DNA of 64,000 bases from Escherichia coli (lineage in GTDB: Bacteria; Pseudomonadota; Gammaproteobacteria; Enterobacterales; Enterobacteriaceae). The DNA lies in the NCBI RefSeq assembly GCF_024223415.1, contig NZ_CP100500.1. One strand, 5' to 3'. The notes below the pieces were generated by a model. That model was not told the origin of the DNA, ran no database searches, and saw only the letters and a program-made list of their open reading frames with translations. Of the stretch, positions 9,082 to 9,290 are shown piece after piece. Every line of letters begins with the position of its first letter. Positions within the stretch are counted from its first letter, which is position 1. The translations under genes were made by a program, and so were the position numbers.

Positions 9082-9090
9082 TTTCCCCGT

Positions 9091-9124
9091 AAAGCGGCAA
9101 CTTTATTGAGTTGCCGCTTTTTTA
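9091..9124 (+). terminator. rho-independent terminator downstream of pflA
   Basis: aaagcggcaac-tttattga-gttgccgc followed by tttttt. Confidence 0.7.
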
Positions 9125-9290
9125 TTCCGCGCTGCATAAATAATTCAGAGCTCTATTTCTAACGCCCTTACAGCACAGCTTCCAAATGTATTACCCAAAC
9201 CGCCAGTATATGTCCTTCGGCTTGCGCGCATTTCTCGATTATGTAAAAACGGGTCAGATCTGCCAGAGTCAGCGTCACCGACCACAATAA

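Follow-up and report, generated by a model that had tools for sequence, protein, structure and literature searches.

A probable deletion scar in place of ycaN and ycaK between pflA and ycaM in Escherichia coli

In E. coli K-12 MG1655 the genes ycaD, ycaM, ycaN (minus strand), ycaK (plus strand) and pflA (minus strand) follow each other in this order (b0898-b0902), with ycaN at 948660-949568 and ycaK at 949668-950258. YcaN is a protein of 302 aa with the Pfam domains HTH_1 and LysR_substrate, and YcaK has 196 aa and the Pfam domain Flavodoxin_2. When YcaN was deleted in K-12, ycaC, ycaD and focA were expressed differently and the formate-utilisation phenotype was negative (PMC9068703). Furthermore, ycaM and ycaN form one of the convergent overlapping transcript pairs of K-12 (PMC12288877). 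Our literature search found no paper specifically on an indel of ycaN and ycaK. Perna and colleagues reportedly catalogued, in 2001, the K-12 segments that are missing from O157:H7 as 'K-islands'.

We studied the same locus in a stretch of E. coli DNA of 64,000 nucleotides (the window). An earlier note on this DNA had pointed out that pflA is here followed directly by ycaM. It had given the K-12 order as ycaD, ycaM, ycaN, ycaK, pflA, which agrees with the MG1655 annotation, and had named direct adjacency of pflA and ycaM in K-12 as the finding that would speak against it; in K-12 the two genes are separated by ycaN and ycaK. We aligned the window with K-12 MG1655 across pflA-ycaM, as the note had proposed, and obtained two matching blocks with the ycaN-ycaK interval missing between them. 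The features of the locus are given below in coordinates of the window.

5867-8149, plus strand: pflB, preceded by focA (ORF list).
8341-9081, plus strand: pflA, pyruvate formate-lyase activating enzyme, intact, 246 aa, TAA stop at 9079-9081 (ORF list).
9091-9126, plus strand: predicted rho-independent terminator of pflA, hairpin at 9091-9120 and T-run up to 9126 (terminator scan, perfect inverted repeat).
9121-9167, minus strand: remnant of the ycaK-pflA spacer (BLAST breakpoints and multiple alignment).
9168-9177, minus strand: deletion junction, TGTGCTGTAA, which aligns to the last codons and the stop of K-12 ycaK, TGCACTATAA.
9178-9290, plus strand: ycaN 3' remnant of 113 bp, the last 36 codons, FQMYYPNRQYMSFGLRAFLDYVKTGQICQSQRHRPQ, and the stop (BLAST, tblastn).
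9291-10721, minus strand: ycaM, APC-family amino acid permease, intact, 476 aa, stop codon at 9291-9293 (ORF list).
10931-12079, minus strand: ycaD (ORF list).
12394-13020, plus strand: ycaC (ORF list).
Beyond ycaC, minus strand: dmsCBA (ORF list).

Both genes that flank the spacer encode the same proteins as in K-12: PflA and YcaM of the window each match their K-12 counterpart with 100% amino acid identity (tblastn), and YcaM carries the Pfam domain AA_permease_2. The flanking genes, in the same orientation, the pflA terminator and the 113 bp at the ycaN 3' end are likewise common to the window and K-12, at 97.5-99% identity. However, K-12 has intact ycaN and ycaK in the 1,680 bp between the stops of ycaM and pflA, whereas the window has neither gene in the corresponding 209 bp (9082-9290), which amounts to a net loss of 1,471 bp. 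The value of 209 bp had already been given in the earlier note and is exact according to both the ORF list and the sequence. The note had further described ycaN and ycaK as absent and the spacer as free of ORFs. Neither gene is present in intact form, but the 113-bp ycaN tail and ~10 bp that resemble the ycaK tail remain; the statement on ORFs is essentially right, except for one mechanical ORF of 46 aa (9145-9285, minus strand).

The breakpoints were determined by BLAST of the spacer and its flanks against K-12, complemented by split alignments. Positions 9040-9137 of the window correspond to positions 7382-7285 of the K-12 locus (L001) with 99% identity, and positions 9178-9340 to L001 5773-5611 with 97.5% DNA identity. 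Right after the pflA stop we found a GC-rich stem of 12-13 bp (9091-9120) followed by TTTATT. We infer that 9091-9126 acts as the pflA terminator and was retained from a K-12-type locus. The adjoining remnant of the ycaK-pflA spacer is K-12-like at 9121-9137 and strongly diverged at 9138-9167, and for this reason BLAST against K-12 leaves the latter stretch unmatched, as if it were 'filler'. We then compared the spacers of the window, K-12, E. albertii and three further Escherichia genomes (L005, L006 and L007) in a multiple alignment. An origin of the 40 bp at 9138-9177 as unrelated filler was considered and rejected, as E. albertii, L005, L006 and L007 bridge this stretch to the K-12 ycaK tail and spacer. 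The K-12 ycaK stop, to which the junction aligns, lies at L001 7257-7259. The bases TGTGCT at 9172-9177 could equally derive from ycaN (K-12 TGTGCTCCAG), and within these bases the breakpoint cannot be placed exactly.

The ycaN remnant comprises codons 267-302 only. At 34 of the 36 positions its amino acids are identical to the C-terminus of K-12 YcaN and the frame is kept up to the stop; the start codon is absent and there is an in-frame stop just upstream. The remnant abuts the ycaM stop directly, at the same position as in K-12, and in strain SCU-316 this fragment is called a partial pseudogene by PGAP ('incomplete; missing N-terminus'). A tblastn search with YcaK gave no match in the spacer of the window at a cut-off as loose as E <= 1, and the intact ycaK ORF is missing. 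An intact ycaN ORF with HTH_1 and LysR_substrate domains was likewise not found in the window spacer. Two marks of a deletion scar are present, namely residual homology to the end of the missing gene in syntenic position, and conspecific genomes with the intact pair between the same flanks. The survival of the last 36 ycaN codons beside ycaM, together with the pseudogene call in SCU-316, indicates that the direction of change was a deletion.

Another indication of the direction comes from related genomes. We scanned species-representative genomes with YcaM and subsequently searched them by tblastn with the K-12 proteins. Every Escherichia representative with ycaM had a ycaM-pflA spacer of 206-237 bp that contained a YcaN C-terminal remnant: the E. 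albertii type strain (NBRC 107761, L008), Escherichia sp. E1V33 (L007), 'E. coli' SCPM-O-B-8794 (L006) and Escherichia sp. MOD1-EC7003 (L005). These spacers show three distinct junctions. Type I is shared by the window and E. albertii, type II (L006 and L007) has ~10 bp less of ycaN and more of the ycaK tail, and type III (L005) retains 52 ycaN codons. Neither type II nor type III was found in the complete genomes of E. coli. As the ycaN tails differ in length and junction, only independent deletions of a full-length gene can account for them, so that the pair was lost repeatedly. Independent deletions in turn imply that the common ancestor of the Escherichia sampled here had the pair and that the window state was derived by deletion. 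We thus consider the 209-bp spacer, with a probability of about 0.9, to be an inert scar left by a deletion of ycaN and ycaK from an older locus with the order ycaD-ycaM-ycaN-ycaK-pflA.

Such a deletion would have removed ~1,470 bp with the divergent pair of ycaN, a LysR-type regulator, and ycaK, a flavodoxin-like NAD(P)H oxidoreductase. It would have left in place the final 113 bp of ycaN, a few ycaK-tail-like bases, the ycaK-pflA spacer and the pflA terminator. Judged from the sequence alone, the most likely mechanism is illegitimate recombination at very short imperfect homology, between TGTGCT in ycaN and TGCACT at the end of ycaK. In K-12 the two motifs form an imperfect microhomology of 6 bp, located at L001 5784-5789 in ycaN and at L001 7250-7255 in ycaK. 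As this is the sole homology at the breakpoints, it points to illegitimate recombination at the level of microhomology. No direct repeat of at least 9 nt was detected at the K-12 breakpoints, and the remaining repeats in the scar are chance matches of 9-12 nt. The junction is free of IS ends, of terminal inverted repeats and of a target-site duplication, and the terminator hairpin is its only notable inverted repeat. There is also no tRNA in the window and no integrase flanking the scar.

The age of the allele was assessed mainly from the comparison with E. albertii NBRC 107761. Its locus resembles the window in scar architecture, junction and secondary indels and is colinear through the scar, in a single HSP of 3.8 kb with 87.5% identity. 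It differs from the window by ~22% divergence inside the scar and by a different ycaM end, with the stop a few codons later. Common to the window and E. albertii are a 10-bp deletion in the ycaN remnant, a 9-bp deletion in the spacer and the derived motif CTGAATTATTTATG; both CTGGA(A/G)GC/CTGGACGC units of the ycaN remnant are retained in K-12 and L005. Over the junction core (9124-9177) the identity to the window amounts to 62% for K-12 and 76% for E. albertii, percentages that are noisy for a core of ~50 bp with indels. In sequence 50 bp further out on either side of the core the identity to K-12 is 98-100%, and the 72 bp of the ycaN remnant nearest to ycaM are identical to K-12. Because E. 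albertii shares the junction and two secondary indels, and because the identity of the core to K-12 is as low as 62%, the deletion allele looks old or imported, a reading in which we have moderate confidence. The K-12-identical 72 bp then require that the flanks were homogenised by recombination within E. coli, and the core beside the indel would have escaped this process. A more far-reaching version, which we put forward tentatively and regard as unlikely, is that presence and absence of ycaN-ycaK form a long-lived polymorphism. The deletion allele would date from before or around the split of E. coli and E. albertii and would have persisted, or been exchanged, beside the intact allele, with the flanks but not the ~50-bp core homogenised. 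If this were true, it would suggest balancing or fluctuating selection on the regulator/oxidoreductase pair, at a hotspot of cargo exchange between convergent genes across the Enterobacteriaceae.

The main alternative to an old or imported allele is that the deletion occurred recently within E. coli. E. albertii would then have acquired its junction independently, at a microhomology prone to deletion, and error-prone repair during the deletion would have produced the diverged filler. A recent event is consistent with the high similarity of the ycaN remnant to K-12 (97.5%, without a single difference in the 72 bp nearest to ycaM), with the low diversity of the junction region among E. coli carriers (98.1-100% identity, i.e. 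at most 2% variation) and with the short microhomology at the breakpoints. However, the window and E. albertii have more in common than the junction: they also share the 10-bp remnant deletion, the 9-bp spacer deletion and the motif CTGAATTATTTATG, and three coincident indels are unlikely to have arisen by chance. The core of the window is also nearer to E. albertii than to K-12. We thus regard a recent parallel deletion as quite improbable and prefer an old or imported allele.

The direction of change could also be reversed: the window state could be ancestral, and K-12-type strains could have gained ycaN and ycaK by insertion into a 209-bp spacer. Evidence in favour of such a gain comes from other genomes. 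In Citrobacter, Kluyvera, Yokenella, Pluralibacter and Salmonella arizonae/diarizonae, ycaM and pflA are adjacent without ycaN or ycaK. For Citrobacter, Kluyvera, Yokenella and Salmonella arizonae/diarizonae we detected no ycaN or ycaK remnant by tblastn; in the first three and in Salmonella diarizonae the two genes are 50-150 bp apart, and most of these spacers have a hairpin of their own. Furthermore, the closest relatives of YcaK outside E. coli fall to 67% identity or less, and the site accepts other cargo in other lineages. In E. coli 06-00048 (L046 1780-14489) and E69 (L022 8431 onward) a 12.7-kb EAL/GGDEF/bcsA/bcsB/bcsC island, which contains a second cellulose-synthase cluster, occupies the ycaM-pflA site in place of ycaN-ycaK. 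Neither strain has a ycaN remnant, and their ycaM 3' end is divergent, with 84% identity to K-12 and the window for E69 and ~91% for 06-00048. Citrobacter werkmanii, Citrobacter sp. Cu233 and two Kluyvera carry a cassette of ~5 kb with PTS EIIA, EIIB, EIIC-GAT, a split transketolase and an RpiR/SIS regulator (L010 8420-14206, L012 8408-13496, L032 8399-13219 and L041 8402-13234). Several Citrobacter (L010, L015, L020 and L033) have at this site a predicted protein of ~263-264 aa with a signal-peptide-like N-terminus; the L010 copy, the one that was scanned, gave no Pfam match.

A gain by insertion is nevertheless very unlikely for the window itself. The spacer holds the true 3' end of ycaN, with 34 of 36 aa conserved and in frame to the stop, in addition to the ycaK tail and spacer, and an insertion cannot yield ycaN tails of different lengths and junctions in three Escherichia lineages. 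At most the pair was inserted once, before Escherichia diversified, and the window state would still be derived from it by deletion. We also considered ycaN-ycaK as an insertion specific to Escherichia, an idea that had to be softened in view of Pseudocitrobacter corydidari. In this organism (L047 2851-8454) we found ycaD, a ycaN-like LysR gene (79% aa identity, overlapping the end of ycaD), a ycaK-like gene (67%), a gene of the choloylglycine-hydrolase family, a second LysR gene and pflA. The locus is without ycaM and ycaC, and its YcaD and DmsC are ~82% identical to K-12, so that the value for the YcaN-like protein is similar to that for YcaD. The regulator/oxidoreductase pair is thus not confined to Escherichia at this locus. 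Hafnia alvei also has the divergent LysR/oxidoreductase pair (68% and 62%), in another context. The pair may be older than Escherichia and have been cleanly lost elsewhere, or it may have been gained horizontally.

Given that the spacer is most probably a scar left by deletion, it could still have taken on a new role, for example by encoding a small protein or an sRNA. The 46-aa ORF mentioned above has a GTG start and runs antisense to the ycaN remnant, and there is one promoter-like match on the minus strand. However, E. albertii, L005, L006 and L007 have interruptions or frameshifts in this ORF, and the number of promoter-like matches equals the expectation from shuffled sequence. A search of the spacer against Rfam returned one sub-threshold match on the terminator hairpin (17.7 bits compared to a gathering score of 42, E = 0.66). 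Between the scar and E. albertii there are 19-26 differences per 100 bp, at or above the 10-20 in the coding flanks; this would be compatible with neutral evolution, although the region is short. We consider a functional spacer extremely unlikely.

To explain the short spacer the earlier note had offered two possibilities, an indel within the lineage and DNA of another species; the observation itself is confirmed and the indel is supported, as the ycaN tail persists. A different species with another gene order is hardly credible. The spacer is similarly short in E. albertii and in further Escherichia outside E. coli, but over 13.2 kb the window has 99.92% identity to E. coli SCU-316, and its flanks have 98.4-98.7% identity to K-12, compared to 87.5% for E. 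albertii (values for the local region). Moreover, the junction occurs in 1,022 complete E. coli genomes. SCU-316 is listed as phylogroup E, ST57 in a published table (PMC11251922). By these identities the window is assigned to an E. coli near SCU-316 and of the phylogroup E type.

We determined the frequency of the locus states across 5,426 complete E. coli genomes. The intact ycaN-ycaK pair was the most frequent state with 3,318 genomes, among them K-12, C41(DE3), 55989 and ECOR29. The full-length junction of the window occurred in 1,022 genomes (19%), for example in O157:H7 strains. In a further 1,047 genomes, including O25b:H4-ST131 and BH100, pflA lies directly next to ycaD and ycaM, ycaN and ycaK are all missing. 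The other ~39 genomes show states such as an IS1-disrupted ycaN or the EAL/GGDEF/bcsABC island. For O157:H7 and phylogroup E strains such as PV15-279, ATCC 35150 and SCU-316 the junction is that of the window, with 100% identity over 156 bp, and we observed no difference in the locus. Over 1.2 kb the difference between the window and the O157-like strain '123' is ~0.7%. The ST131/B2-type locus, represented by BH100 (L003), resembles the window in that ycaN and ycaK are gone and the pflA terminator is kept. It differs by the larger deletion, which includes ycaM, and by having zero ycaN remnant. Since the outgroups keep ycaM, we infer that the pflA-ycaD state is a clean deletion of ycaM, ycaN and ycaK of ~3.3 kb. 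At L003 7483-7578 the pflA terminator of BH100 joins a hairpin just 3' of the ycaD stop, probably the ycaD terminator.

Several other features were encountered in the vicinity of the locus. In the window ~37 kb (17204-54583) separate dmsA and serS, which are adjacent in BH100 and in K-12. The first 18 kb of this stretch have ~78-80% identity to P2-like and P88-like phages, with an integrase, a replication protein, a terminase, a portal and a capsid protein, and the stretch is probably a P2-family prophage. A search with 24 kb of the window gave best matches of only 98.3% and few full-length matches, which is probably due to the prophage beyond dmsA and not to an unusual species. In E. coli FDAARGOS_1279 (L051 1-2744) the end of a P2-like prophage with Cox, an HTH protein and an integrase abuts the 5' end of pflA, which is annotated 57 bp longer in this strain. 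A phage attachment site may thus lie within or at the start of pflA in FDAARGOS_1279. Upstream of ycaD, Kluyvera cryocrescens and another Enterobacteriaceae isolate have two dmsC-like copies ~4 kb apart (tblastn; L025 480-1340 and 4471-5331, L029 536-1396 and 4525-5385), which may reflect a tandem duplication of the dms operon.

The loss of ycaN and ycaK is a routine, widespread and already annotated gene-content polymorphism of E. coli. It is only mildly unusual, in the repeated independent loss within Escherichia, in the apparent age of the allele and in the use of the ycaM-pflA site for other cargo. Judging by strain names and the phylogroup of SCU-316, the intact state, the loss of ycaN-ycaK and the loss of ycaM-ycaN-ycaK roughly track strains of K-12/B/55989 type, of O157:H7/phylogroup E type and of ST131 type, respectively, and the three states could serve as a simple lineage marker. 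For annotation, the short pflA-ycaM spacer is genuine and not an assembly error, and the ycaN pseudogene fragment should be marked. In the window ycaM would now converge on the predicted pflA terminator across 170 bp of dead sequence. Strains with this allele, including O157:H7, are without YcaN, YcaK and the ycaM-ycaN transcript overlap. As YcaN is missing in O157:H7-type strains, regulation in the pfl/focA area may differ between E. coli lineages.
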